DNA of 60,184 bases from Bacteroidales bacterium. Lineage in GTDB: Bacteria > Bacteroidota > Bacteroidia > Bacteroidales > VadinHA17. Under the pieces are notes generated by a model that saw nothing but the letters and a program-made list of their open reading frames with translations, had not been told where the DNA came from and made no database searches. The stretch lies in NCBI GenBank assembly GCA_019429325.1, contig JAHYJA010000001.1, forward strand, positions 1-60,184, in the 5' to 3' direction. The translations under genes were made by a program, and so were the position numbers. Below are positions 38,620 through 59,890 of the stretch, in pieces (position 1 is the stretch's first letter; each line of letters opens with the position of its first letter).

Positions 38620-39206
38620 CGAATGGATTATCGGAAAAGGCCAGGAATGATCTTCTGCTTGTGGAGAAGGCTAAGAACGGAAGTGAGCTTGCATTCGCCA
38701 ACCTGATGAGCCGTTACAGGGATTCCATCTATTTCATGCTCCTGAAAATGGTGAACAACCCGTCTGATGCCGAGGATCTCACGATAGAGGCATTTGGAAA
38801 AGCCTTCCGTAACCTCGAATCCTTCACACCCGAATTTGCATTCAGCACCTGGCTCTTTAAAATAGCCACAAACAATTGCATCGATTTCATCAGAAAAAAA
38901 CAGAGTTCCCCTTCACCGATCGATCAATGGCATGATGATATCGACAACCTCACCATCAACATACAATCTGATCTCCCCGACCCGGAGGAATCGCTTATCA
39001 ATGATCAGAAGATAGCTGTCCTCAGGGGAATAGTCAACCAGCTGAAGCCCCGTTACAGAACCCTTATTGAACTCAGGTACTACAAGGAATATTCCTACGA
39101 AGAGATCTCATCGGAACTTAAACTCCCCATTGGAACGGTTAAAGCGCAGCTCTACAGGGCAAAATCCCTTCTTTACAACATCTTCGTTAAAACAGGCAAC
39201 AGGTAG
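38610..39206 (+). CDS. ECF-type RNA polymerase sigma-70 family factor
   Basis: Region 2 (AEDLTIEAFGKAF, WLFKIATNNCIDFIRKK) and region 4 (YRTLIELRYYKEYSYEEISSELKLPIGTVKAQLYRAK). Its start overlaps the GT2 stop by 10 nt. Confidence 0.85.
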   Translation: MEVTNGLSEKARNDLLLVEKAKNGSELAFANLMSRYRDSIYFMLLKMVNNPSDAEDLTIEAFGKAFRNLESFTPEFAFSTWLFKIATNNCIDFIRKKQSSPSPIDQWHDDIDNLTINIQSDLPDPEESLINDQKIAVLRGIVNQLKPRYRTLIELRYYKEYSYEEISSELKLPIGTVKAQLYRAKSLLYNIFVKTGNR

Positions 39207-39847
39207 TGCCAGAGCGTATCTTCAGATATTTCCCGTCACTTTCAGAAATCCAGGCCGACAGAATCTCGCGCATGATGGAGATCTACCGTGAATGGAACGA
39301 CAGGATCAATGTTATCTCGCGAAAAGACCTTGAAAATTTCTATATTCATCATGTTCTTCATTCACTGTCGGTTGCCAGGATAATCTCCTTCCTGCCATCC
39401 ACGCGTATTCTGGATGTCGGTACAGGAGGGGGCTTCCCCGGCATACCCCTTGCCATACTCTTTCCCGCATCGGAGTTTACCCTTCTCGACTCTGTGGCGA
39501 AAAAGATAAAAGTGGCAGACGCTGTGATCGGCGGGCTTGGTCTGAGTAACGCCTTCACGGCAAGGAGAAGGATTGAAGAGGAAAAAGGAAAATATGATTT
39601 CGTCGTCAGCAGGGCTGTCACCGGCTTTCCCGCCCTGGTGAAGCTGACGGCAGGAAAAATCTCTGACAACAGCAGGAACAGCCTGCAGAATGGCATCATC
39701 TGCCTGAAGGGAGGCTCCATTGAGGATGAGCTTGCTCCTTTCAGAGACAGGGTCAGAATTTGGGACATAAAGGACTTCTTCTCAGAGCCATTCTTTGAAA
39801 CAAAAAAGATTATCTTTCTTCCGTCAGCTAAAGCTGACGGCAATTGA
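39206..39847 (+). CDS. rsmG: 16S rRNA (guanine527-N7)-methyltransferase
   Basis: SAM motif LDVGTGGGFPGIPLAI. Its GTG start overlaps the sigma stop by 1 nt (TAGTG). The last 8 codons plus the stop lie in a repeat element. Confidence 0.85.
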   Translation: MPERIFRYFPSLSEIQADRISRMMEIYREWNDRINVISRKDLENFYIHHVLHSLSVARIISFLPSTRILDVGTGGGFPGIPLAILFPASEFTLLDSVAKKIKVADAVIGGLGLSNAFTARRRIEEEKGKYDFVVSRAVTGFPALVKLTAGKISDNSRNSLQNGIICLKGGSIEDELAPFRDRVRIWDIKDFFSEPFFETKKIIFLPSAKADGN

Positions 39848-39997
39848 ATTTTCCTGAAACAGGACTAAGGTCCCGGACTGAGAAGGAGGGAGCCTCATCT
39901 GTCCGTCAGCTAAAGCTGACGGCAATTGAGCTGCTTCAATTGCCGTTGGCTTTAGCCAACGGATGTGGAAGCTTTTACTGCAGCCGGGCTTTAGCCC
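39821..39997. repeat. REP-like hairpin cluster with a 27-bp direct repeat
   Basis: ccgtcagctaaagctgacggcaattga occurs at 39821-39847 (rsmG 3' end) and again at 39903-39929. Consecutive 8-bp-stem hairpins are CCGTCAGC-TAAA-GCTGACGG (39903-39922), GGCAATTG-N8-CAATTGCC (39921-39944) and CCGTTGGC-TTTA-GCCAACGG (39943-39962), plus GGGC-TTTA-GCCC (39986-39997). Confidence 0.85.
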
Positions 39998-40053
39998 AAT
40001 AAAGCGAAATTCAAAAAAATTATCCCTTCAGCCTCAATTTTCCAAAAAAACAC

Positions 40054-40061
40054 TATATTTG
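40054..40061 (+). promoter_or_regulatory. Bacteroidota -7 promoter box
   Basis: TATATTTG lies 42 nt upstream of the rpmH ATG. Confidence 0.5.
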
Positions 40062-40102
40062 CGGTCTCAAATAAAAACAGCAACAATTAAATAATTATCA
40101 AT

Positions 40103-40258
40103 ATGAAAAGGACATTTCAGCCATCCAGGAGAAAGAGAGTGAACAAGCATGGTTTCAGGGAAAGGATGTCCACCCCTAACGGCAGAAGAGTGATTTCAGC
40201 ACGGAGGGCAAAAGGGAGGAAGAGGCTGACAGTCTCTTCTGAAATGAGGTTAAAATAA
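40103..40258 (+). CDS. rpmH: 50S ribosomal protein L34 (51 aa), not in the ORF track
   Basis: It translates to [51 protein letters not shown], which has the canonical L34 N-terminus and basic composition. Confidence 0.95.
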
Positions 40259-40283
40259 TATTTACCAAGCCTGTAATCCATAA

Positions 40284-40315
40284 AGGGTGTCTGCTGAAAG
40301 GACACCTTTTTTTTT
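40284..40315 (+). terminator. Rho-independent terminator of rpmH
   Basis: The stem AGGGTGTC / GACACCT has a core of 6 Watson-Crick pairs and a 9-nt loop, followed by a run of 9 T. Confidence 0.8.
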
Positions 40316-40316
40316 C

Positions 40317-40324
40317 TACCTTTG
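40317..40324 (+). promoter_or_regulatory. Bacteroidota -7 promoter box
   Basis: TACCTTTG lies 25 nt upstream of the ATG at 40349. Confidence 0.45.
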
Positions 40325-40348
40325 CCTGCATCATTTCATGCGGTTTCA

Positions 40349-41449
40349 ATGAACGGACTGGCCGATTATATTGATAATGAAGCATTGAAGCAGATATCCG
40401 CCAGGATAGATGCCGGTGAGAGGATAACTCCCGCGGAAGGCTTGATGTTATACGAAAAGGCAGGCCTGCCTCTCCTGGGGATGCTGGCCGGAAGAGTCAG
40501 AAGACGGCTTAACGGTAATTCAGCCTTCTTTAACCGTAATTTCCATATCGAACCAACAAACTTATGCATTCACAACTGCCTCTTCTGCTCGTATCAAAAG
40601 AGCGAAGGCGATCCCGGGAGCTGGGATTACGGACACGATGAGATACTCGAAGCATTAAGGCGTTTTGATGAAGAAAAAATTACAGAGGTGCATATTACAG
40701 GAGGAGTACACCCCGGCCACGGTCTGGATTTCTACTGCAAGATGGTCCGTATGATCAAACAACACAGGCCATCACTGCACGTGAAAGCATTTTCCGCAAT
40801 TGAGATCGATCATATGATCAGCAGGGAAAACCTCACAATGGAAGAGGGTCTCCGCAGGCTTGTCGATTGTGGAGTTGACTCCATACCAGGCGGAGGCGCT
40901 GAGATATTTGATGAGAAACTGAGGGAGAAGATTTGCCCGGGAAAAACCTCCTCTGAGAAATGGCTGGAGATTCACGAAACAGCTCATAAGATTGGAATTA
41001 AATCTAATGCCACAATGCTTTACGGGCATTTTGAATCGTACAGCCACCGGATAGACCACATGGAACGGCTCAGGAAGCTCCAGGACAGAACCTCCGGTTT
41101 CAATGCTTTCATACCACTCAGGTTCAGAAACGCGAATAACCGCATGGAGCACCTTGGTGAGGTGAGCGTAACCGAAGACCTGAGAAATTACGCAGTCGCA
41201 AGACTCTTCCTTGATAATATCCCCCACATCAAGGCATACTGGCCGATGACAGGCAGGGAGGTCGCCCAAATGGCACTCTCTTTCGGTGCTGACGATCTCG
41301 ATGGCACAATCGGAGATACTACGAAAATTTACTCCATGGCCGGGGCAGGTGAACAGAATCCCGTCATTACCGTCGAGGAAATAACGAGACTTATCTGCGA
41401 AGCAGGCTACCAGCCGGTAGAGAGAGACTCCGCTTACAACCCGGTCTGA
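40349..41449 (+). CDS. Radical SAM enzyme of the MqnE/MqnC/CofH family (futalosine-route menaquinone biosynthesis type)
   Basis: Radical SAM cluster motif CIHNCLFCSY sits ~55 aa from the N-terminus. ~367 aa, with a C-terminal CofH/MqnC-like region (DDLDGTI). I cannot distinguish the subfamily by eye. Confidence 0.6.
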   Translation: MNGLADYIDNEALKQISARIDAGERITPAEGLMLYEKAGLPLLGMLAGRVRRRLNGNSAFFNRNFHIEPTNLCIHNCLFCSYQKSEGDPGSWDYGHDEILEALRRFDEEKITEVHITGGVHPGHGLDFYCKMVRMIKQHRPSLHVKAFSAIEIDHMISRENLTMEEGLRRLVDCGVDSIPGGGAEIFDEKLREKICPGKTSSEKWLEIHETAHKIGIKSNATMLYGHFESYSHRIDHMERLRKLQDRTSGFNAFIPLRFRNANNRMEHLGEVSVTEDLRNYAVARLFLDNIPHIKAYWPMTGREVAQMALSFGADDLDGTIGDTTKIYSMAGAGEQNPVITVEEITRLICEAGYQPVERDSAYNPV

Positions 41450-41477
41450 TCAGCTCTCCACTTAATAATTTTATCAT

Positions 41478-41485
41478 TACATTTG
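41478..41485 (+). promoter_or_regulatory. Bacteroidota -7 promoter box
   Basis: TACATTTG lies 29 nt upstream of the ATG at 41514. Confidence 0.45.
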
Positions 41486-41513
41486 CGTTATATCTAATGT
41501 TCAATAAACCGGT

Positions 41514-42356
41514 ATGAGCCTGAAGAACTTCCTCCTCAGTAAGATTTTCCTGAAAAACCTGGTCCTGGCCGTTGTGATCGCAATCGGCCTGATAATTCTT
41601 TTGCTTGTATCGCTTAATTTCTATACACGTCACGGACAGGCCCGGCCTGTACCGGATTTCACCGGCCTGAATCTGGACGAGGTCGCTCAGCTCGCCAGAA
41701 AGAACAGGCTGAAATTCGTGGTAATCGATTCTGTGTATACCTCAAACGTGCCAAGAGGTTATATTGCGGAGCAAAATCCTCAGCCCGGGTTCAAAGTAAA
41801 AAAATGGAGGAACATTATTCTTACTATTAATGCTTTTCACCCCGAAATGGTGGCAATGCCCGACCTGGTTGACCTGCCCAAGAGGCAGGCTCTGGCCCTG
41901 ATTGAGAGCTCGGGCCTGAAAATGGGGGAACTCAGGTATATACCCGACCTTTCTGTTGATGTTGTTCTCAGACAGTTGCTTAACGAAAGAGAGATCGCTG
42001 CAGGTGATTCCCTCCAGAAAGGCTCGGTAATCGACCTTATCCTGGGAAAAGGATTGAGTAATCTGAGGACCCCCGTCCCCAACCTTTCCGGCATGACTCT
42101 TGAACCTGCCAGAAACAGGATTCTCGGAGCCTCCCTTAACCTCAGGACCTTCATTTATGACAATACCATCAGATCCGGAAGTGATTCTGTCAAGGCTTTC
42201 GTCTACCGGCAAAATCCTGAGTTCAGGGAGGACCTGACACTTCAGCTTGGTTCCGATATTTACCTCTGGCTGACGATTGATTCTGCCAAACTGCCCGGTG
42301 AGCCAGGCATGATGCTGCCAGACACCATTCCCGGGATTGAACTGCCTGAGCTTTAG
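41514..42356 (+). CDS. Membrane-anchored PASTA-domain protein (no kinase or PBP domain)
   Basis: An N-terminal TM helix (LVLAVVIAIGLIILLLVSL) is followed by three ~65-aa PASTA-like repeats (VPDFTGLNLDEV..., MPDLVDLPKRQA..., VPNLSGMTLEPA...). Confidence 0.7.
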   Translation: MSLKNFLLSKIFLKNLVLAVVIAIGLIILLLVSLNFYTRHGQARPVPDFTGLNLDEVAQLARKNRLKFVVIDSVYTSNVPRGYIAEQNPQPGFKVKKWRNIILTINAFHPEMVAMPDLVDLPKRQALALIESSGLKMGELRYIPDLSVDVVLRQLLNEREIAAGDSLQKGSVIDLILGKGLSNLRTPVPNLSGMTLEPARNRILGASLNLRTFIYDNTIRSGSDSVKAFVYRQNPEFREDLTLQLGSDIYLWLTIDSAKLPGEPGMMLPDTIPGIELPEL

Positions 42357-42369
42357 AACTGATAATCTG

Positions 42370-44229
42370 ATGTTTAAGAAAATTGTCCCATACCTGCTGA
42401 TTCTCAACCTGTTTTTTTCAGGTTCGCATGCCCAGGAGGTAGTGACAGGTTTGCCATCCCAGATTCAGATCATTGAGAAGAATTCCGGCAGCTTAAGGAC
42501 CAAGGGAATCTCAGCCGATATGATCCCCCTTCCGTTTTTTGACGATTTCTCAGGCAGTTCAATATTTCCCGACCCCTCGCACTGGTCAGATGATTTTGCA
42601 TTCATCAACAACACCTATTCCGACCGCCAGATAACTACCGGTGTGGCAACGCTGGATGCTATCGACAATTACGGAAGGCTTTATGAATCAGCGGCAACCA
42701 CAGTATTCAGGGCCGACCAGCTTACATCCCAGCCAATTGATCTTGCTTATCCTGCATCCGACAACATCTGGCTCAGTTTCTGGTATCAGCCTGGCGGTCT
42801 GGGTGATCAGCCTGAACCTAACGATTCGCTTACACTTCAGTTCCTTGCCCCTGAAGAGGGAATATGGTATTCGGTCTGGAAAGCGGAAGGGTCGGACCAG
42901 CCGGATTTCAAGCCGGTCATAATCAGGATCGAAGATGCACGTTATCTTATGGAAGGATTCAGGTTCCGTTTCGTCAACTATGCCAGCCTGACCCCAAATA
43001 TTAGCGATCCTGCAATGACAGGCAATTGTGATCACTGGAACCTGGATTACGTGCTGCTCGACCGAAACAGGCACGAAGCGGACACTCTCTTCAGGGATGT
43101 TGCATTCACTAACGGATTACGTTCACTTCTGAAAACACACGAATCAATGCCGTGGAATCAGTTCCGGCAGGCCTCTCTGCAGGAAATGGGCTCCTTTATA
43201 CCAATCAGCTACCGTAACAACGACAATATAATCAGGAACGTTACACGTAATTTCCGGATCCGGGATGTTTACAGGAACCAGCAGTCACACTCATTCTCCG
43301 CTGGAGCAACCAATATAGATCCTCAGACAAACGTGGATTATAACGCCAGTCTGATATACACATTCAATACCACCGGCAGCGATTCAGCGCTATTCAATAT
43401 CACAGCCTGGCTGATAACCGATGATTTCGACCCGAAAGCAAACGACACCATAAGGTACGAACAACGGTTCAGCAACTATTTTGCTTTTGATGACGGATCA
43501 GCCGAAGGGGGCTACGGAATAAACGGCCTCGGATCGAGAAATGCCATGGCTGCCTACAGATTCAAATCTTTCATCCGCGACACTCTCAGAGCTGTTCGTA
43601 TATGCTTTAACGACAGCTATATGAATTCAAACAGAAGATCTTTCGACCTGATGGTGTGGGACGATAACCTGGGATCACCGGGGAATGTGATCTATTCACT
43701 TGAGGAAGTGATGGTTGAACAGGGACCAAGGATCAATGGATTTTACACATATCTTCTGCCAGACGGGGTTATGGTGGATGATGTTTTTTATGTCGGATGG
43801 CGACAGCGGTCCGAGACTTTCCTGAATGCCGGCTATGATGTCAACACCCCGCATGGAAACAGACAGTTTTACTGGCTTAACGGCTCATGGAACCAGTCGC
43901 AGGTAAGTGGAAGCGTAATGATCCGGCCTGTCGTCGGGGAACCCCTTAAAACCACTTCAATCGACCCTGTGCCGGAAGAAGGTGAAAACACCTTCAGAAT
44001 AAGGATATGGCCCAACCCCGCTTCCGGTTTCATCAATCTGGGATATGACGAATCAATCATGCCTGTCAATGCCAGCATTACCGTCATTGATCTCCAGGGC
44101 CGCGAACAGATGAACGTAAAGCTCGCCAGTCGCATCGACATCTCCTTCCTTCCCGCAGGAATCTACATTGTAATTCCCAGGCTGAACGGGAGGCCGGCAG
44201 CTCATTACCGTCTGGTCAAAACAAGGTAA
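42370..44229 (+). CDS. Secreted protein of unknown function with a T9SS C-terminal sorting domain
   Basis: Signal peptide MFKKIVPYLLILNLFFSGSHAQ. The C-terminal ~80 aa (IWPNPASGFINL...ITVIDLQGRE...LPAGIYIV) match the type-A T9SS CTD pattern. Confidence 0.65.
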   Translation: MFKKIVPYLLILNLFFSGSHAQEVVTGLPSQIQIIEKNSGSLRTKGISADMIPLPFFDDFSGSSIFPDPSHWSDDFAFINNTYSDRQITTGVATLDAIDNYGRLYESAATTVFRADQLTSQPIDLAYPASDNIWLSFWYQPGGLGDQPEPNDSLTLQFLAPEEGIWYSVWKAEGSDQPDFKPVIIRIEDARYLMEGFRFRFVNYASLTPNISDPAMTGNCDHWNLDYVLLDRNRHEADTLFRDVAFTNGLRSLLKTHESMPWNQFRQASLQEMGSFIPISYRNNDNIIRNVTRNFRIRDVYRNQQSHSFSAGATNIDPQTNVDYNASLIYTFNTTGSDSALFNITAWLITDDFDPKANDTIRYEQRFSNYFAFDDGSAEGGYGINGLGSRNAMAAYRFKSFIRDTLRAVRICFNDSYMNSNRRSFDLMVWDDNLGSPGNVIYSLEEVMVEQGPRINGFYTYLLPDGVMVDDVFYVGWRQRSETFLNAGYDVNTPHGNRQFYWLNGSWNQSQVSGSVMIRPVVGEPLKTTSIDPVPEEGENTFRIRIWPNPASGFINLGYDESIMPVNASITVIDLQGREQMNVKLASRIDISFLPAGIYIVIPRLNGRPAAHYRLVKTR

Positions 44230-44237
44230 TCGCGGTA

Positions 44238-45269
44238 ATGGCAGAAGAAGAACTCCCCGATCAGCAGGAACTATTTGAACATTTCAGATTTAATGTTGAG
44301 CCCGGGCAATCCATGCTGAGGCTGGACAAATATCTTTTCTCCAGGATCGAAAATATTTCAAGGACACGTATCCAGGATGCTGCCGCAGCAGGCAACATAC
44401 TGGTTAACAACAAGCCTGTCAGGGCAAGCTACAGGGTAAAACCCGGTGATATGATCCAGATTGTACTCCCTGCGCCACCCCGAGAAATAGAGCTTATTCC
44501 CGAGAACATCCCCCTGGACATCGTTTATGAAGATGATGATGTGATTGTGGTGAATAAGAAACCCGGCATGGTTGTTCATCCGGCCTATGGGAATTATACC
44601 GGCACACTGATAAATGCACTGATGTGGCATTTCAGGGATCTTCCGCTGTTTCAGACCGGCGAGCTCAGACCCGGACTGGTGCACAGGATCGATAAGGACA
44701 CTTCCGGCATAATTGTCGTGGCAAAAAATGAGCTCAGCCTTAACCGCTTATCGCGCCAGTTCTATGAACGTACCACTGACCGTTTGTACACTGCCATCGT
44801 CTGGGGCCGGCCGGAACCTGCCTCCGGGACCATCACGGGCCATGTCGGAAGGAACATAAGAGACAGAAAGATCATGCAGGTCTTTCCTGATGGCAGTCAG
44901 GGCAAACCTGCGGTAACACATTATAAGGTCATTGAGGATCTTGGCTATATTTCAGTCGTTGAATGCAAGCTTGAGACCGGAAGGACTCATCAGATAAGGG
45001 TCCATTTCAGCTGGTTCAGACATCCCCTGTTCAATGATGACGAGTATGGTGGTGACAGGATACTAAAGGGAACCGTCTTCAGCAAGTATCAGCAATTCGT
45101 CAGAAACTGCTTTGAAATTTTGCCCCGTCAGGCGCTTCACGCACGGTCGCTTGCATTTGATCATCCTGCTACCGGGGAGAGGCTCTCCTTCGTATCTGAC
45201 CTTCCCGGTGATATGCAGACAGTGATCGATAAATGGAGGGCATATATCTCAGGAAGGGCTGAGGGCTGA
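44238..45269 (+). CDS. rluD: 23S rRNA pseudouridine synthase, RluD/RluA family
   Basis: N-terminal S4 domain and catalytic motif HRIDKDTSG. The last 4 codons and the TGA stop lie inside the GGGCTGA array. Confidence 0.9.
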   Translation: MAEEELPDQQELFEHFRFNVEPGQSMLRLDKYLFSRIENISRTRIQDAAAAGNILVNNKPVRASYRVKPGDMIQIVLPAPPREIELIPENIPLDIVYEDDDVIVVNKKPGMVVHPAYGNYTGTLINALMWHFRDLPLFQTGELRPGLVHRIDKDTSGIIVVAKNELSLNRLSRQFYERTTDRLYTAIVWGRPEPASGTITGHVGRNIRDRKIMQVFPDGSQGKPAVTHYKVIEDLGYISVVECKLETGRTHQIRVHFSWFRHPLFNDDEYGGDRILKGTVFSKYQQFVRNCFEILPRQALHARSLAFDHPATGERLSFVSDLPGDMQTVIDKWRAYISGRAEG

Positions 45270-45307
45270 GGGCTGAGGGCTGAGGGCTGAGGGCTGAGTG
45301 CTGAGGG
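45256..45307. repeat. Heptamer tandem array (GGGCTGA) x ~7.4
   Basis: Six perfect copies plus GTGCTGA and GGG. The array contains the rluD stop codon. Confidence 0.95.
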
Positions 45308-45312
45308 AAGAT

Positions 45313-45353
45313 TTGTGAGTTGTGAGTTGTGAGTTGTGAGTTGTGAGTTGTGA
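45313..45353. repeat. Heptamer tandem array (TTGTGAG) x ~5.9
   Basis: Perfect copies. It is related to the TTGTGAT arrays at 55647 and 59567-59648. Confidence 0.95.
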
Positions 45354-45385
45354 TTAGGCTGAGCTGCCATCCCTTGTAATACGCC

Positions 45386-45426
45386 TGAATGACTATTGAA
45401 TGACTATTGAATGACTATTGAATGAC
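45386..45426. repeat. 11-mer tandem array (TGAATGACTAT) x ~3.7
   Basis: Three perfect copies plus a partial one. Confidence 0.95.
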
Positions 45427-45434
45427 CAGATAAT

Positions 45435-45469
45435 TCGCTCCATCGCTTTGTCGCTCCATCGCTCCATCA
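45435..45469. repeat. Octamer tandem array (TCGCTCCA) x ~4
   Basis: tcgctcca tcgctttg tcgctcca tcgctcca tca. Confidence 0.85.
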
Positions 45470-45483
45470 TTCCCTGCTTCCTG

Positions 45484-45590
45484 CTTTGCCAGCCGTCTTC
45501 GTCGGCCGTAGGTCGACTTCGACGACCGAAGGCCGAAGCCTTGCTTTGCCAACCGTAGCCATGCGGAGGTTGGGCGAAGGCTGGCTCCCC
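45484..45590. repeat. GC-rich hairpin block sharing words with the 59.7-59.9 kb locus
   Basis: CTTTGCCAGCC (45484) and GCGAAGGCTGGC (45574) are both also present near 59722/59831/59869. Local stems are GGTCG-N7-CGACC and CCAACC-N13-GGTTGG. Confidence 0.75.
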
Positions 45591-45610
45591 GCTCTACGCT
45601 CTACTCTATC

Positions 45611-46429
45611 TCACCATCTGCCGCCGGCACCACCTCCTCCGAAACTGCCTCCTCCGAATCCGCCGAATCCGCCGCCAGACCCTGTTCCTCCTCCTCCCGA
45701 GAATCCTCCCCAACTGCCGCTGTGCCTGCTGCTGCCTGAATTCATCATTGCCAGCAGCATCCACACAGGAAGCCCCTTTTTGCTTATATGCCTCTGGTTC
45801 GAGCCTCCCTTTGTACGGATAAACAATATCGTCACCAGTACGATTATGAAAATAACAAAAGGTATGACATCACTTACATTGCCCCTCATCTCTTTGCTAT
45901 ACTCGTCCGCAGTAAACTCCCTGGCTGCAAGCGACATGATGACGTCAGTGGCTTTGTCGAGGCCATTGTAAAAATTTCCAGCCCTGAACTCTGGCAGTAT
46001 CTCGTAATCTACTATCTGACCGCAGACAATATCAGGGATTACCCCTTCAAGGCCGTATCCCGGCGCAATAAAGACCTCACCAACCGGCGACACTGTTGTT
46101 TTTGGCTTTACAAGTATCAGAACGCCGTTATCCAGGCCCTGACGGCCTATTCCCCACTTTTCAGCAAGACGGTGGGCATAATCTGCCACGTCGTATCCCC
46201 CGAGATCTGAAACAGTAACAACAGCTATCTGGGTTGATGTGGTGTCGCTGAATGCGACAAGCTTGCCCTCGAGCATGTTTATCTCCCCTGATGTCAGCAT
46301 CCCGGCAAAGTCGTTTACAAGCCTGGGGGGAGATGGCTTATCCGGGATTGTCTGGGCTGCAACATTGCCGGTGATGCCTGTGCCAGCAAGCAAAACATAT
46401 ATGATCAGAATAACGTATCTCGTTTTCAT
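45611..46429 (-). CDS. TPM-domain protein with a TM helix and Gly-rich C-terminal tail (YgcG-like)
   Basis: Signal peptide, TPM/phosphatase-like domain (NDFAGMLTSGE...QIAVVTV), a TM segment (VIPFVIFIIVLVTILFI), and the tail GSWGGFSGGGGTGSGGGFGGFGGGSFGGGGAGGRW. Confidence 0.75.
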   Translation of the reverse strand: MKTRYVILIIYVLLAGTGITGNVAAQTIPDKPSPPRLVNDFAGMLTSGEINMLEGKLVAFSDTTSTQIAVVTVSDLGGYDVADYAHRLAEKWGIGRQGLDNGVLILVKPKTTVSPVGEVFIAPGYGLEGVIPDIVCGQIVDYEILPEFRAGNFYNGLDKATDVIMSLAAREFTADEYSKEMRGNVSDVIPFVIFIIVLVTILFIRTKGGSNQRHISKKGLPVWMLLAMMNSGSSRHSGSWGGFSGGGGTGSGGGFGGFGGGSFGGGGAGGRW

Positions 46430-46890
46430 TTATCGGAAAACTTATAGGGATCGTCATACGATATATCATCCGGCAGTTCGTTGACATCATCCGGCATTCG
46501 GGGGAAATGATCCTTAAGCTGTTCACCTGCAAGCAGGATGGCTTCCGCCAGCCCTTCAGCAAATCTTCCCTGGTTGAAACGCTCCTGAAGAAGCTCTTTT
46601 ATCCTGTCCCAGAAATCCCCGGCGACCTGCGCGTTTATTCCCGAGTCTCCAATAACGGCAAACTGTCTGCTCCTGACAGCCAGATAGAAGAGGACCCCAT
46701 TTCTCAGCTCCGTCCGGTGCATACCGATCTTTTTGAAGATCCATGCCGCCCGGTCCATAACATCTCCCTCCAGAGCCGTCTCAATGTGAACCCGTATCTC
46801 TCCCGAAGTGGCCTTCTCAGCCTCCCTGATTGCAGAAAGAATATAATCCTGCTGATCACGCGAGAAAAAATCCGAGGCTCTGATTTCCAT
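46426..46890 (-). CDS. TPM-domain protein (TLP18.3/Psb32/MOLO-1-type putative phosphatase), cytoplasmic-type
   Basis: 154 aa with a TSGEIRVHIE motif. There is a 4-nt overlap with the downstream TPM gene. Confidence 0.7.
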   Translation of the reverse strand: MEIRASDFFSRDQQDYILSAIREAEKATSGEIRVHIETALEGDVMDRAAWIFKKIGMHRTELRNGVLFYLAVRSRQFAVIGDSGINAQVAGDFWDRIKELLQERFNQGRFAEGLAEAILLAGEQLKDHFPRMPDDVNELPDDISYDDPYKFSDK

Positions 46891-46903
46891 GCTCTTCCCT
46901 GTT

Positions 46904-47506
46904 TCAGAATTTTACCTGGGGCGCTTTCTCAGTGCCGGCGTCCGCTTCGAAATAAGGTTTTTCGTGAAATCCGAACATCGCCGCAAGGATTCTCTGGGGA
47001 AACTGTTTAACAAATGAATTGTAGGCTAATGTCACTTCGTTGAATCTTCTCCTTTCAACGGAGATCCTGTTCTCGGTCCCTTCCAGTTCGATCTGGAGAT
47101 CCCTGAAATTCTGAGTGGCTCTCAGTTCCGGATATTGCTCAACAACCACCATCAGCCTCGACAGGGCAGAACTCAGACCCTCCTGTGCCTGCTGGAACTG
47201 CTGCATGTTCTCCGCAGTCATGTTTGCAGGATCAATATTAACTGAAGTAGCCCTGGCCCTTGCTTCAATAACTTGTGTAAGTGTTGATTGCTCAAAAGCG
47301 GCAGCTCCCTTGACCGTTTCCACGAAGTTTGGGATCAGGTCCGCCCTGCGCTGGTATTGAGTCTCAATATTACCCCACTGGCTGGTGACAGCTTCACTCA
47401 TCGTAACCATGTTGTTGTAGATCCTGGTACCCCAGAGAACAATGCCAAGCGCAATGAGCAAGAGAAAGCCGGCTAAGATTATCCAGATTAAACAACCTTT
47501 CTTCAT
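46904..47506 (-). CDS. lemA: LemA family membrane protein
   Basis: N-terminal TM helix and conserved QYQRRADLIPNFVETVKG and YPELRA motifs. Confidence 0.85.
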   Translation of the reverse strand: MKKGCLIWIILAGFLLLIALGIVLWGTRIYNNMVTMSEAVTSQWGNIETQYQRRADLIPNFVETVKGAAAFEQSTLTQVIEARARATSVNIDPANMTAENMQQFQQAQEGLSSALSRLMVVVEQYPELRATQNFRDLQIELEGTENRISVERRRFNEVTLAYNSFVKQFPQRILAAMFGFHEKPYFEADAGTEKAPQVKF

Positions 47507-47529
47507 CTTTCTGATATTTATTATTTATT

Positions 47530-47537
47530 CAAAGATA
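47530..47537 (-). promoter_or_regulatory. Bacteroidota -7 promoter box
   Basis: CAAAGATA lies 24 nt upstream of the lemA start. Confidence 0.45.
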
Positions 47538-47564
47538 CTTAAACAGCAGATTATTACAAATGAC

Positions 47565-47572
47565 TAAATTTG
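47565..47572 (+). promoter_or_regulatory. Bacteroidota -7 promoter box
   Basis: TAAATTTG lies 23 nt upstream of the ATG at 47595. Confidence 0.45.
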
Positions 47573-47594
47573 GAAATCAATAATTGTGGCCAGG

Positions 47595-48581
47595 ATGAGA
47601 ACAATAGCAATAGTTGCCGGAGGTAATTCTTCTGAATACGAGATCTCTGTAAAAAGCGCGAATGAAGTGAGTAAGACATTGTCTGCCAGATATATAACCT
47701 ATATCATAATGATCCGTGGCATCAACTGGTACTGGGAGGATCCCAAAGGGCGCTTCCACGCTGTTGACAAGAATGATTTTTCCCTGATGACCGATGATGC
47801 CAGGATAAGATTTGATGCCGTCTTCATAGCCATACATGGCACCCCGGGTGAGGACGGGCTACTGCAGGGTTATCTCGACATGCTGGAAATTCCGTATACA
47901 AGCTGCAGCTCTTTTTGCTCAGCCCTCACCTTCAACAAACAGGCCTGCAAGTCATATCTCAGAGAATACGGGATTCCTATGGCTGATTCAGTCTTAATAA
48001 ACAGGAGGGAAGTTCCCGCTACTTCTGAGATTATCAGCAGAACCGGATTGCCCTGTTTTGTCAAACCCAACGCGAGCGGGTCGAGCTTTGGGGTAAGCAA
48101 GGTCACAAAGGAGGAAGAGTTATCATCTGCCATCGAAAAAGCTTTTCATGAGAGCCCGCAGGTGATGGTGGAAGCGTTTATGGAGGGGCGTGAGGTCGGA
48201 TGCGGAGTTGTAAAATCCGGGGAAAAAACTTTGGTATTGCCTGTAACCGAGATCATCAGCAAGAATGATTTTTTCGACTACGAAGCCAAATACACTCCCG
48301 GGAGGTCTGATGAGATCACTCCCGCCGACCTGCCGGTAGAGATCACAGATGAAATTCAGGAAATGAGCTCAGCTGTTTATGACATCCTTGGCTGCAACGG
48401 GATTGTCAGGGTTGATTTTATTATCGTCGGCACGAGGCCATTTTTCCTTGAGATCAATACTGTCCCCGGGATGACGCCGGAAAGCATAGTGCCAAAGCAG
48501 GCAGAGGCTGCGGGGGTAGCGCTTGAGGAGCTCTATTCGATGGTGGTCGAAGACTGTATAAGAAGGGGCGTTACGGCGTAG
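47595..48581 (+). CDS. ddl: D-alanine--D-alanine ligase
   Basis: N-terminal MRTIAIVAGGNSSEYEIS, then HGTPGEDG, an ATP-grasp core and C-terminal EINTVPGMT. The last 5 codons and the TAG stop lie inside the GGGGCGTTACGGCGTA array. Confidence 0.9.
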   Translation: MRTIAIVAGGNSSEYEISVKSANEVSKTLSARYITYIIMIRGINWYWEDPKGRFHAVDKNDFSLMTDDARIRFDAVFIAIHGTPGEDGLLQGYLDMLEIPYTSCSSFCSALTFNKQACKSYLREYGIPMADSVLINRREVPATSEIISRTGLPCFVKPNASGSSFGVSKVTKEEELSSAIEKAFHESPQVMVEAFMEGREVGCGVVKSGEKTLVLPVTEIISKNDFFDYEAKYTPGRSDEITPADLPVEITDEIQEMSSAVYDILGCNGIVRVDFIIVGTRPFFLEINTVPGMTPESIVPKQAEAAGVALEELYSMVVEDCIRRGVTA

Positions 48582-48622
48582 GGGCGTTACGGCGTAGGGG
48601 CGTAGGGGCGTAGGGGCGTTAC
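48565..48622. repeat. Nested 16-mer/8-mer tandem array (GGGGCGTTACGGCGTA x2, GGGGCGTA x2, GGGGCGTTAC)
   Basis: Perfect copies. The array contains the ddl stop codon. Confidence 0.95.
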
Positions 48623-48626
48623 ACGT

Positions 48627-48655
48627 TGTGCCACTATGCAGCTGTGCCGCTATGC
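48627..48655. repeat. Direct repeat TGTGCCNCTATGC x2 (16-nt period)
   Basis: tgtgccactatgc agc tgtgccgctatgc. Confidence 0.8.
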
Positions 48656-48669
48656 CGTAATGCCGTTTG

Positions 48670-50055
48670 TTATTCCAGTGCTTTTTTAAGGGCGCTCGTT
48701 GTTGTGTAATATTTCGTTATCATTCCCGGCACTTCCCAGTCAGGCAGTTTGCCTGCTTCCATGTACTCCAGGAACTTTCCGGTAACCTGGCCGAAATGAG
48801 CCTCATGTCCGACCCTGTAGCTATCCGGGATATTGATCTTAAGTGTCTTTGCATTAACGGCCTCAACTATAAGGTTTTCGTAGGGCAGGGATGCCAGTGC
48901 ACTCTTTAGTTTCTCAGTGAAAAGATCCATATTAATACCCTTTACATTTTCAATGTAAAAGGTAGGTACATATTTCTCATCAGCCCCCTGTTTGATCACA
49001 AGATCGCATTGAGTTCCCCGCATCACCGAATAATGAGTATCTCCTGCTCCGGGAGGTGCCTGGTAATTCCATTCAACAGATACTTTGGCATATATTCCTT
49101 TTAACCGGTAGACCATCTCTCCGTTGGCGTAAACATTCAGCTTCCCATCCTTCACATCCTTCTGGAGGTAAGGAGGAAAATCCTCAATGCCGGTAACTCC
49201 CCTGAACTCCTCCTTCGACATTACTGTTGGCCATCTCCTGGCTTCAATCATCTCCACGTCTGATATGCTCAGGATCTGCTCAGGGAAGCACTCCCACTGA
49301 ATAAGATCTACAAGGTGTGTCGTCACATCAACTATTCCTTCCCCCTGCTGATCAACATCAAAAAACCAGGCCGGACGTATCAGCGGGGCTCCGGAAACAA
49401 TCTTTGAGAAATGGTGAACACTTACCTTTGTTACTGCAGGATCCTCCTTACTGCCGGTTACAAGTTTCCCAAAGACCTCTTCCTTTTGTGACAGAAGCTT
49501 CTGAAGTATTGTAGTTATCTCATACCGCTCAGTCATGATATCGTAAAGCAGGATGCCCTTCTCCTGTGCAGCGCGGAATGCTTTCTCAAGTCCTGGAAAA
49601 TCTTCCGGAAGAATGATCATTGGTTTGTCTGCAAGCACGTTAAGGCCTCCGGCTACTGATCTGCTTATATATTCGGCTTTTTTTCTGTTGTTACCTGAAA
49701 GAACAACCACATTACCGGGCTTTTCCGAAAGCATCTTTTCAAAGAAATCATCTCCCCGGTAAATGACTTCATTCCAGGCTGTCGGATCGGCCTCCCTTGC
49801 GTTGTACGACTCTATCCTGTCGAGATGTTGCTGAACATCAGGACCTTCAGGAGCATAAACATAAACATCTGGGGATACCTGATCGTACATGATTTTCTGA
49901 ACAAGGGCGGCATGAAAATGCCCGGGATCGACAGTGATTAATTTAACCTGATAATCATTTTTCATTGAGTCTGCCGGTTTTTTCTGTGAGCCTCCTGAGC
50001 CGCACGAACTCAGCAAAACTACAGCTGTGAGTATTAACAATAAGATCTTCTTCAT
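48670..50055 (-). CDS. Lipoprotein, putative oxidoreductase (Gfo/Idh/MocA-like N-terminus with a distinct C-terminal domain)
   Basis: Lipobox LLSSCGS. The KLITVDPGHFHAALVQK segment resembles the family annotated as putative oxidoreductase with the Oxidoreduct_C domain. This is from recollection only. Confidence 0.45.
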   Translation of the reverse strand: MKKILLLILTAVVLLSSCGSGGSQKKPADSMKNDYQVKLITVDPGHFHAALVQKIMYDQVSPDVYVYAPEGPDVQQHLDRIESYNAREADPTAWNEVIYRGDDFFEKMLSEKPGNVVVLSGNNRKKAEYISRSVAGGLNVLADKPMIILPEDFPGLEKAFRAAQEKGILLYDIMTERYEITTILQKLLSQKEEVFGKLVTGSKEDPAVTKVSVHHFSKIVSGAPLIRPAWFFDVDQQGEGIVDVTTHLVDLIQWECFPEQILSISDVEMIEARRWPTVMSKEEFRGVTGIEDFPPYLQKDVKDGKLNVYANGEMVYRLKGIYAKVSVEWNYQAPPGAGDTHYSVMRGTQCDLVIKQGADEKYVPTFYIENVKGINMDLFTEKLKSALASLPYENLIVEAVNAKTLKINIPDSYRVGHEAHFGQVTGKFLEYMEAGKLPDWEVPGMITKYYTTTSALKKALE

Positions 50056-54910: not shown

Positions 54911-55561
54911 TCATGTGTTATTAACTGTGCCTTTCAGCATCGGGACAAAAACAAAGTTTCCGTGCGAAGAGTATTCATAAGTATCTTCACCTGTCCTGAT
55001 GACCACTGTCATTTCCTGCGAAAAGGAATTTCCCAGGGGAACCACGAGCCTGCCTCCCGTTTTAAGCTGTTTAAGAAGGTTTTCAGGTACTTCCGGAGCG
55101 GCGGCGGTTATTACAATACCGTCGTAGGGGCCATACTGAGGTTTCCCCTCATAACCATCTCCGAAAAAGAAATCGGCACTATAACCAAGTGAAGAAAGCG
55201 TTCTCTGGGCTTTCAGGAATAATTCCCTGTGGCGCTCTATGGTATAGACCTTTGCGCCCATTTCAGCGAGGATAGCTGCCTGATATCCCGAGCCGGTGCC
55301 GATCTCGAGAATCTTATCCTTTCTCTTTATCTTAAGCAGAGATGTCTGGACGGCAACCGTGTAGGGTTGAGAAATTGTTTGCCCGGAGGTGATCGGGAAG
55401 GCTTTATCGACGTAAGCATGGTTCAGGAATGCCGGGTCCATGAAATCATGACGCGGTACTTTGCCAAAAGCTCTTAATACTTCCTCATCGGTTATACCCT
55501 TTTTACGGAGCTCCTCTACAAGCTTTTTTCTTTTGCCTTTTGCCTCGAAATTGTCTGTCAT
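54911..55561 (-). CDS. pcm: Protein-L-isoaspartate O-methyltransferase
   Basis: PRHDF, the ISQPY motif and SAM motif LEIGTGSGYQAA. The start is trimmed to MTDNFEAKG because the 54 extra ORF-track codons translate the tandem arrays. A -7 box lies 25 nt upstream of the trimmed start. Confidence 0.85.
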   Translation of the reverse strand: MTDNFEAKGKRKKLVEELRKKGITDEEVLRAFGKVPRHDFMDPAFLNHAYVDKAFPITSGQTISQPYTVAVQTSLLKIKRKDKILEIGTGSGYQAAILAEMGAKVYTIERHRELFLKAQRTLSSLGYSADFFFGDGYEGKPQYGPYDGIVITAAAPEVPENLLKQLKTGGRLVVPLGNSFSQEMTVVIRTGEDTYEYSSHGNFVFVPMLKGTVNNT

Positions 55562-55585
55562 CAGTTGACCAGGTAGTGTGGGAGA

Positions 55586-55593
55586 CAAAAATA
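55586..55593 (-). promoter_or_regulatory. Bacteroidota -7 promoter box
   Basis: CAAAAATA lies 25 nt upstream of the pcm start at 55561. Confidence 0.45.
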
Positions 55594-55646
55594 AGAAAAA
55601 TGTAACACAACCTTTCTGCCGTTGGCTAAAAGCGGAGGACGGGGAG

Positions 55647-55688
55647 TTGTGATTTGGGATTTGTGATGTGTGATTTGTGATTTGTGAC
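55647..55688. repeat. Heptamer tandem array (TTGTGAT) x6
   Basis: ttgtgat ttgggat ttgtgat gtgtgat ttgtgat ttgtgac. Confidence 0.9.
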
Positions 55689-55736
55689 CATCGAACCATC
55701 GAACCATCGAACCGTCGAACCATAGTACCGTCGAAC
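55689..55736. repeat. Octamer tandem array (CATCGAAC) x6
   Basis: Three perfect copies, then ccgtcgaa c-catagtac-cgtcgaac variants. It directly abuts the heptamer array. Confidence 0.9.
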
Positions 55737-59699: not shown

Positions 59700-59795
59700 C
59701 TTTCTTGGCTCAGAGCACAGGCTTTGCCAGCCATAGCTGGACGAAGGACAGCGACGGCTGGGCTCAGAGCTTAGGGCAAGAGAGTAATTCTGTTT

Positions 59796-59890
59796 GCCAA
59801 CTGCCAACTGCTTTGTCAGCCGTAGCTTCAGCGAAGGCTGGCCAACTGCTTTGTCAGCCGTAGCTTCAGCGAAGGCTGGCCAACTGCTTT
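59796..59890. repeat. 38-nt perfect tandem duplication (x2.3), each unit carrying a hairpin
   Basis: gccaactgctttgtcagccgtagcttcagcgaaggctg occurs at 59803-59840 and 59841-59878, with partial copies on both sides. The stem is CAGCC-N14-GGCTG. Confidence 0.95.

Follow-up and report, generated by a model that had tools for sequence, protein, structure and literature searches.

Repeat-Derived Ends of Three Housekeeping Genes

The stretch of DNA analysed here (the window) was a contig of 60,184 nucleotides (nt) from the metagenome-assembled genome (MAG) of an uncultured Bacteroidales bacterium (assembly GCA_019429325.1; contig JAHYJA010000001.1, numbered C120 below). The MAG comprised 3.39 Mb in 263 contigs with 46% GC. 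Its genus consisted of uncultured Bacteroidales originating from fens, lake sediments, and digesters, and the closest named relative was "Bacteroidales bacterium UBA5621" (G041). The intergenic spacers were densely filled by hypervariable short tandem arrays, mostly of 7-nt units, and by repetitive extragenic palindromic (REP) hairpins. The genes of the window were identified with NCBIfam and Pfam profiles. In three housekeeping genes, namely, ddl, an rluD-like gene, and rsmG, the final 3–8 codons and the stop codon were supplied by repeated DNA. The profile matches of Ddl, the RluD-like protein (RluA/D), and RsmG ended 4–11 residues short of the C-terminus of each protein and were complete upstream of the repeats; hence, the tail alone can change. 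An earlier note on this DNA had placed the ends of these genes inside repeats, and the positions were confirmed by the sequence and by Tandem Repeats Finder (TRF). The coordinates are summarized in Table 1.

The 3′ end of ddl, 'agg ggc gtt acg gcg TAG', lay within 3.7 copies of AGGGGCGTTACGGCGT, and the TAG was formed where units 1 and 2 join. In most of approximately 100 relatives, Ddl ended with ...LYSMVIEDLF[x] and a stop. The Ddl of the window read ...VVEDCIRRGVTA up to its stop (ending EDCIRRGVTA), and that of UBA5621 read ...EDSVRRSVERKA (RRSVERKA) in an array of four GAGCGTA units. A second metagenome scan yielded one useful contig, Ga0105104 (85% Ddl identity), in which the gene ended with EDLFK-TAA without an array. 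In a three-way alignment, the window and UBA5621 had a common 2-nt gap within the last three codons relative to Ga0105104. This gap is a 2-nt frameshift by which the old stop lost its register, and the open reading frame (ORF) then entered a G-rich tract. The tails and arrays diverged after the common frameshift, with RRGVTA and the 16-mer (3.7 copies) in the window and RRSVERKA and GAGCGTA (four copies) in UBA5621.

Many members of the genus carried an 8-mer array of the ddl type (AAGGCGTA / ACGGCGCA) directly after the native ddl TAA. This native state, with the array straight after the stop, was found in L108 ('ttt gag TAA agg cgc aac ggc'), L147, L161 ('gag TAA cgg cgt aaa tgc aca aag gcg TAA'), and L169. 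At least five distinct fusions of Ddl with an array were observed. Besides that of the window and UBA5621, they comprised L107/L137 (...IIQRHNGVKA), L152 (...LFNGVKA), L124 (...MFNAAKA), and L159 (...LFEGTKSVTM), each tail being followed by the stop. In addition to the lineage of the window and UBA5621, at least four others joined Ddl to this spacer array in independent events.

The rluD-like gene ended with 'agg gct gag ggc TGA'. The final 3–4 codons, (R)AEG, and the TGA were within the GGGCTGA array, and the stop used was the TGA of the second unit. Among 29 relatives compared by tblastn, the conservation of RluD reached ...(E/D)KWRxYxSGR, beyond which 0–6 variable residues followed in every species; the AEG after SGR in the window came from the array. 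The RluD of UBA5621 ended with ...YIAGRAEG and a stop, with only 2.6 GGGCTGA units, and GTAGAGC x4 then stood flush with the stop of the convergent TPM-domain gene. Arrays flush with both convergent stops (GGGCTGA and, on the opposite strand, GTAGAGC) were common to window 45255–45604 and UBA5621 C46:26612–26670. Approximately 290 nt between the two stop-flush arrays, holding the GTTGTGA, TGAATGACTAT, and TGGAGCGA arrays and hairpin blocks, were missing in UBA5621. Since UBA5621 had the same AEG end with 2.6 units, the growth to 7.6 units took place downstream of a pre-existing stop. Likewise, since the 290 nt were missing there, these arrays and hairpins are recent gains, and the stop upstream of them did not change. 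The strand polarity flipped within this spacer. A metagenome scan with the rluD end gave no matches.

The 3′ end of rsmG, 'ccg tca gct aaa gct gac ggc aat TGA', was a 27-nt hairpin (39821–39847), so that the last eight codons and the TGA were inside a REP element, of which a second copy lay 55 nt away. In nearly all of the 29 relatives, RsmG ended with ...FFETKKIVYLP[V/A/S/L/I/F] and a stop. That of the window read ...IIFLPSAKADGN and a stop, in which AKADGN was extra (+6 residues). The rsmG of UBA5621 bore the same REP hairpin; directly after this shared copy, the UBA5621 contig (C46, L181) had a run of N, and the rest of the spacer was not comparable. In the window, the REP cluster occupied the spacer from the rsmG stop to a small ORF starting at 40103 (39848–40102), which resembled ribosomal protein L34 (rpmH). 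In relatives, the spacer downstream of rsmG was a plain A/T-rich promoter region.

The earlier note had listed the rsmG hairpin element together with the arrays, and it turned out to be a different kind of element. Its core, CCGTCAGCTAAAGCTGACGGCAATTG, had 63 genome copies at ≤5 mismatches. The family was an imperfect palindrome of 26–28 nt with many extragenic copies, and its stem variants were compensatory (CCGTCAGC/GCTGACGG, CCGTTGGC/GCCAACGG, and CCGTCGGC/GCCGACGG). Clusters of alternating orientation, similar to bacterial interspersed mosaic elements (BIMEs), were found at C182:39596–40760, C26:53–376, C216, and window 39903–39962. A PF01797 Y1-transposase gene (C182:39919–40263, 90.2 bits) stood between the REP clusters 39596–39753 and 40378–40760. 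By its sequence and neighborhood, the rsmG element belongs to a REP family with a cognate REP-associated tyrosine transposase (RAYT; IS200/IS605-like Y1), unlike the tandem arrays. Enrichment of the REP family at stops was rejected: only the rsmG copy overlapped a stop (1/63), and 3/63 were within 10 nt, which indicates no stop preference across the family. Four more PF01797 genes (C168, C14, C36, and C221) may serve other hairpin families, for which GCTTTGCCAGCCGTAGC...GGCGAAGGCTGGC at window 45485–45585 and 59725–59890 is a candidate.

Table 1. Genes and repeat features at the three gene ends of the window.
Feature	Position	Strand	Basis
rsmG (16S rRNA m7G527 methyltransferase)	39206..39847	+	TIGR00138, 113.9 bits, profile ends at residue 204/213
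REP-type hairpin copy 1, CCGTCAGC-TAAA-GCTGACGG-CAATTGA, codes PSAKADGN and stop	39821..39847	+	sequence
REP copy 2, core identical to copy 1	39903..39929	+	sequence, family scan
REP copy 3, stem variant CCGTTGGC...GCCAACGG, inverted, gives a BIME-like cluster	39937..39962	-	family scan
RluD-like RluA-family pseudouridine synthase	44238..45269	+	TIGR00005, 281 bits
GGGCTGA x7.6 array, G-rich on rluD sense strand	45255..45307	+	TRF
GTTGTGA x5.9 array	45313..45353	+	TRF; absent from UBA5621 spacer
TGAATGACTAT x3.7 array	45386..45426	+	TRF; absent from UBA5621
TGGAGCGA-type array, G-rich on minus strand, which is sense for the convergent TPM gene	45435..45468	-	TRF
TAGAGCG x2 array, a few nt past the TPM gene stop; GTAGAGC x4 in UBA5621	45590..45604	-	TRF and UBA5621 comparison
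Convergent TPM-domain gene, native Gly-rich C-terminus conserved up to the stop	45611..46429	-	PF04536; flanks of relatives
ddl (D-Ala-D-Ala ligase), tail CIRRGVTA and TAG in place of the usual ...LF[x] and stop	47586..48581	+	NF002527, 357.9 bits, profile ends at residue 325/331
AGGGGCGT(TACGGCGT) array, 16 nt x3.7 or 8 nt x7	48564..48622	+	TRF
Imperfect inverted complement of the ddl array	48623..48662	+	folds with the array into one long hairpin

Anchoring at Stop Codons and Strand Polarity Across the Genome

The whole genome was examined with a set of 2628 genes, called by our own codon-bias ORF picker, and with 707 tandem arrays found by TRF. The arrays were intergenic in 511 of the 707 cases, and 51 overlapped gene ends in part. 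A period of 7 was the most frequent (181/707), and a period of 14 was found in 73. Tandem units of approximately 7 nt were over-represented outside coding DNA, as in the repeat class of Rehm et al. (2015). Moreover, 22 stop-adjacent arrays were at contig ends; the assembly appears to break at arrays, and the array counts are therefore lower bounds.

Measured from the final base of the stop, the edges of the arrays peaked between −1 and +7 nt, with 6–12 per position compared with approximately 2–4 elsewhere and approximately 1–2 at 5′ ends. In the null model, arrays were re-dealt at random within their own spacers in 2000 permutations. A gap of ≤3 nt to the stop was observed for 90 arrays, whereas 36.2 ± 4.3 were expected, and a gap of ≤7 nt was observed for 112, whereas 58.5 ± 4.9 were expected; none of the 2000 permutations was as high in either case. 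The 5′ flanks, which served as an internal control, fitted the null (27 vs 25.8). The anchoring survived in a strict set (genes ≥150 aa, arrays ≥3 copies). The stop was inside the array in 74 genes, and at least 9 nt of the ORF were in the array in 32 of them. A read-through capture that was not among these 74 overlaps was observed at C243:2457–5732 (minus strand), where an ORF of 1091 aa crossed an in-frame array with a 9-nt period (2467–2506) and stopped approximately 8 nt past it.

Among the arrays within 10 nt of a stop, 93 were G-rich when read in the sense of the gene and 18 were C-rich. The bias was 47 vs 4 in the strict set and was present for tandem neighbors (45 vs 15), convergent neighbors (28 vs 3), and the contig ends (20 vs 0). 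It was absent at 5′ flanks (16 vs 16; 24 vs 22) and for arrays farther from stops. In convergent spacers, the polarity changed over at mid-spacer. The polarity as a by-product of stop triplets was rejected, since the units without a stop triplet on either strand gave 37 vs 6. An origin from coding-strand composition was likewise rejected, since that bias was far too mild (G 0.249 vs C 0.217).

The 181 heptamer arrays fell into 49 unit classes, the largest of which held 18 arrays. AGTTGGC (18), AGCAGGG (16), and AGAGCGT (12) were among them, and several classes recurred at 10–18 unlinked loci. Classes with a GGG run accounted for 33/181 heptamer arrays (approximately 18%); AGTTGGC, AGAGCGT, AATCGGT, and CTGGTTG, which were among the commonest classes, had no such run.

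Array Turnover Relative to UBA5621

UBA5621 was syntenic over 39000–48800 with 92–94% DNA identity. The match broke exactly at the three repeat spacers, which shrank to approximately 20–53 nt in UBA5621. Twenty orthologous stop-flush sites were compared between the MAG and UBA5621, and the changes included differences in unit number. At C211:793, one unit family was replaced by another at the same orthologous stop. At C233 and C261:9608, the array was flush with the stop in the MAG only, and the arrays present in one genome stood 0–8 nt past the stop. At C115, a new array separated the stop from an older one. At C78:3716–5326, UBA5621 read GAG-TAG-TGA and the MAG GAG-CGG-TGA, so that the stop was one codon deeper into the array.

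Among 269 orthologous 3′ ends, arrays were detectable by TRF at the orthologous stop in 4/16 stop-flush cases and in 5/14 non-flush cases; better conservation of stop-flush arrays was rejected on these counts. The arrays turn over fast at approximately 92% DNA identity. A 626-kb sample of UBA5621 had the same stop-proximal trend (21/43 arrays within 10 nt) and a polarity of 14 vs 5.

Candidate Functions of the Arrays

Several functions of the arrays were considered and rejected. As a multi-frame stop buffer, the arrays failed: a sense stop triplet was found in only 57/119 units, and the next in-frame stop was at a median of 17 codons after stop-flush arrays vs 12 in ordinary 3′ flanks. As hairpin terminators, they were no better than array-free 3′ flanks (median z of the minimum free energy −0.59 vs −0.49, p = 0.9). 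Among the window spacers that were folded, the ddl spacer alone folded well: 48560–48675 formed a single long hairpin (RNAfold, −59.1 kcal/mol, z = −4.9), and the rluD spacer had a z of −0.17. A two-arm design with an inverted partner was rejected as a general rule, since an inverted partner of the same unit was present within 700 nt for only 2/107 stop-flush arrays. Phase-variable contingency loci were rejected because the repeats were in the last 1–8 codons rather than in promoters or early coding DNA. A gene for Rho was present (C131:4269–6041). Its ORF had 629 aa against a profile of 415 positions, the excess probably being a large N-terminal insertion of the kind known from other Bacteroidota.

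Origin of the Tails and Competing Explanations

The C-terminal tails probably arose from repeats flush with stops that became part of the ORF through loss of the stop, a frameshift, or slippage of units. One sub-class of arrays stands flush with stops, and its G-rich strand is the sense strand of the gene just ended. The native stop would then be removed or shifted by a point change, by an indel of 1–2 nt in the last codons, or by slippage of units that are not a multiple of three. Because the repeats touch the stop, a small stop-altering mutation sends the ORF into repeat DNA, where it would stop at the first in-frame stop triplet offered by the repeat. The outcome would be short (3–8 aa), non-conserved, lineage-specific C-terminal tails on conserved housekeeping proteins, and such tails may be neutral by-products. 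The anchoring, in turn, may reflect where repeats can arise and persist, and a dedicated insertion machine need not be invoked. The stop would mark the first base past the gene that is unconstrained, ribosome-free, and transcribed, and a G-rich non-template strand possibly favors slippage. A permissive-site or transcription-linked mutational origin is favored over a selected signal and over targeted insertion.

It is exceedingly improbable that the pattern is an artefact, whether of the ORF calls, of the array boundaries set by TRF, or of the assembly of the MAG. TRF may lengthen an array by 1–2 chance matches, and contigs break at arrays, as at the 22 stop-adjacent contig ends; however, a stop has the same position whichever gene caller is used, the signal persisted in the strict sets, the 5′ flanks behaved as a control should, and the independently assembled UBA5621 had the same rsmG REP, the same AEG tail of RluD, and an extended Ddl. 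The earlier note had offered two mechanisms, array growth that overwrote the native termini and insertion targeted to the 3′ ends of ORFs. Its interpretation was partly supported. Both checks that it had proposed came out in its favor, in that the tails of RsmG, Ddl, and RluD were lineage-specific additions or replacements relative to orthologues and the array starts coincided with stops beyond random placement; neither mechanism, however, matched the evidence. In L152 and L107, the array register began right after the conserved ...EDLF and ...EDII, the old last codon and stop being gone, as overwriting would have it. Nevertheless, slippage changes an array by whole units, so that its flanks are displaced and not replaced, relatives retained the native Ddl stop followed by the array, the event in the ddl of the window and UBA5621 was the 2-nt frameshift, and the rluD array expanded wholly downstream of an unchanged stop. 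Overwriting is largely refuted for ddl and rluD and is very unlikely overall. In active targeting, an integrase, retroelement, or recombination system would copy a limited number of unit families just past stops, and the tails would come from insertion slightly upstream of the stop. The sharp peak of array edges, the small number of heptamer classes with several at many unlinked loci, the arrays at C233 and C261:9608 that were absent from the orthologous UBA5621 sites, the new array at C115 that fits exactly between the stop and its older neighbor, and the unlike families flush at the same stop at C211:793 agree with it. Nonetheless, neither an enzyme nor a target-site duplication nor a conserved junction was detected, arrays without polarity also stood at mid-spacer and at 5′ flanks, and Ddl was a case of stop loss rather than insertion. 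Furthermore, two genomes cannot polarize gains against losses, and the PF05635 genes (described below), the sole array-associated gene family seen, did not track the arrays in copy number across relatives. Targeting is hence considered quite improbable.

A selected gene-end signal, in which C-poor, G-rich RNA past the stop is functional and the tails are incidental, is unlikely. It may act by blocking Rho loading on the sense transcript while providing a C-rich rut-like site for antisense or convergent transcripts, by a pause at a G-quadruplex (G4) or R-loop, or by protection of the 3′ end. The strong polarity within approximately 10 nt of the stop in all gene contexts, its switch in the middle of convergent spacers, the presence of Rho, and the same rule in Xanthomonas and Nostoc (PMC4692102) speak for such a signal, whereas the retention of stop-flush arrays was no better than that of other arrays, the structure did not exceed that of array-free flanks, G3 runs were confined to a minority of the heptamer arrays, and most genes had no array. 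Some points also weigh against the capture of stop-flush repeats as preferred above. A permissive site alone leaves the strong sense-strand G-richness and the recurrence of 49 classes at unlinked loci unexplained, and the three apparent gains relative to UBA5621, 0–8 nt past the stop, are also compatible with targeted insertion. The order of events was directly polarized for ddl only; the AEG tail of rluD was common to UBA5621, and its first two units could be array or native. In addition, the gene set rests on a home-made ORF caller. More speculatively, and with a low though real chance of being right, the arrays may mark the base at which ribosomes exit and be made or kept by a process that requires ribosome-free transcription. 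Such a process could be slippage promoted by R-loops where the non-template strand is G-rich, or selection for C-poor RNA that escapes Rho loading, with a C-rich rut-like tract presented to antisense transcripts. The arrays would then be a sequence-agnostic "gene-end code" common to several phyla.

Relation to Known Repeat Systems

Heptamers of the short tandemly repeated repetitive (STRR) type were reportedly described in cyanobacteria by Mazel and co-workers in 1990. The long simple sequence repeats (LSSRs) of Mrazek, Guo and Shah (2007), as summarized in PMC4679880, have units of 5–11 nt with 7 nt dominant and occur sporadically across lineages; units that are not a multiple of three are kept out of coding DNA, and slippage is thought to be the driver. 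LSSRs and STRRs resemble the present arrays in the dominance of heptamers; in the accounts at hand, however, their descriptions come without stop anchoring or a rule of sense-strand polarity. G-rich heptamers were described in Xanthomonas (GGGAATC) and Nostoc PCC 7120 (GGGGA(C/T)T) by Rehm et al. (2015, PLoS One 10:e0144275, PMC4692102). They occur on the coding strand within 50 bp of the stop, stop overlaps included, and their function is not known (PMC4692102). The likeness is close, comprising intergenic tandem heptamers of variable copy number that adjoin or overlap the stop and have their G-rich strand in the sense orientation. Those genomes, however, have one consensus unit each, which carries G3–4 tracts, occurs preferentially as four units, and was demonstrated to fold into G4, whereas the MAG, from another phylum, has 49 heptamer classes together with units of 8–16 nt, and only approximately 18% of its heptamer arrays have G3 runs. 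The rule for upstream sites, by which the G-rich strand is the non-coding one up to 50 bp from the start, did not hold in the MAG, where 5′ polarity was absent. The anchoring here was resolved to single nucleotides, and the capture of ORF ends was documented with orthologues. Thus, the placement rule on the sense strand at or over stops was already published in 2015, and the repeat class is known from Xanthomonas and cyanobacteria; the present analysis adds the phylum, many unit families, independence from G3 runs, single-nucleotide anchoring statistics, and recurrent capture of ORF ends. Since the rule held in Bacteroidales with many unit families, it is independent of a single motif or of G-quadruplex potential.

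TAACTGA repeats were reported by MacGregor (2015, PMC4679880) in marine Beggiatoaceae, cyanobacteria, and some Bacteroidetes; they overlap stops and offer stops in all frames. They are a single unit, mostly just upstream of starts, and were proposed as translational regulators. The arrays of the MAG are heptamers too, but they were anchored at 3′ ends, and their back-up stops were no closer than those of ordinary flanks.

REPs near stop codons in E. coli are said to affect translation, as Liang, Rudd and Deutscher reportedly found in 2015. The rsmG palindrome resembled REP/BIME systems with a RAYT in its approximately 63 copies, its alternating clusters, and the Y1-transposase gene flanked by copies; it differed in that one copy was translated as the last eight codons of rsmG. 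The shift of stop codons is, by the citation in PMC3549826, an established mode of gene evolution (Vakhrusheva, 2011, J Mol Evol 72:138). As in that mode, the 3′ ends of ORFs lengthened or shortened by stop loss or gain, and short non-conserved tails were added. Here the added sequence is repeat DNA flush with the stop, and capture is therefore recurrent, as in the Ddl fusions.

These results account for odd species-specific C-terminal tails on housekeeping proteins and for unstable gene and contig ends in such MAGs, and they are useful for annotation and for trimming orthologues. The recurrent Ddl fusions and the fast turnover offer an evolutionary handle on a repeat class that has been unexplained since the STRR reports of 1990. 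Should the anchoring prove to be tied to Rho or to the release of ribosomes, it would be relevant to the marking of gene ends in bacteria that are sparing of canonical terminators.

Further Features of the Window and the MAG

The further genes of the window identified by profiles included two convergent TPM-domain genes, a LemA gene, and an Oxidoreduct_C lipoprotein gene. The earlier note had also stated that the stop of a hybrid kinase gene overlaps ATTACCAACT. This was literally true; the element, however, was a dispersed 10-mer with 14 genome copies and not an array, and the first array after the kinase began approximately 23 nt downstream of the stop.

All seven PF05635 genes (23S-rRNA-IVS / Avd-like four-helix bundle, where IVS denotes intervening sequence) were bracketed by inverted tandem arrays; at baseline, 20% of all genes had an array within 150 nt. 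The sites were C198:9210–9703, C38:17846–18320, C156:2727–3309, C243:2034–2506, C206:2989–3626, C232:3612–4120, and C128:3741–4194. An example of the brackets is AGTTGGC x4 ... TGCCAAC x3.4, and the left arm was often flush with the stop of the upstream gene. The arms at C156 and the "empty" ddl hairpin (window 48560–48675) shared one unit family. The tracking of array content by PF05635 copy number across relatives was rejected, as no clear relation was seen. A hardware link between the arrays and the PF05635 genes is possible.

At window 55647–55736, arrays of TTGTGAT x6 and ACCATCGA x6 left one minus-strand frame free of stops. The longest pcm ORF (54911–55723) therefore has a false N-terminal extension, and the Pcm profile starts at residue 58.

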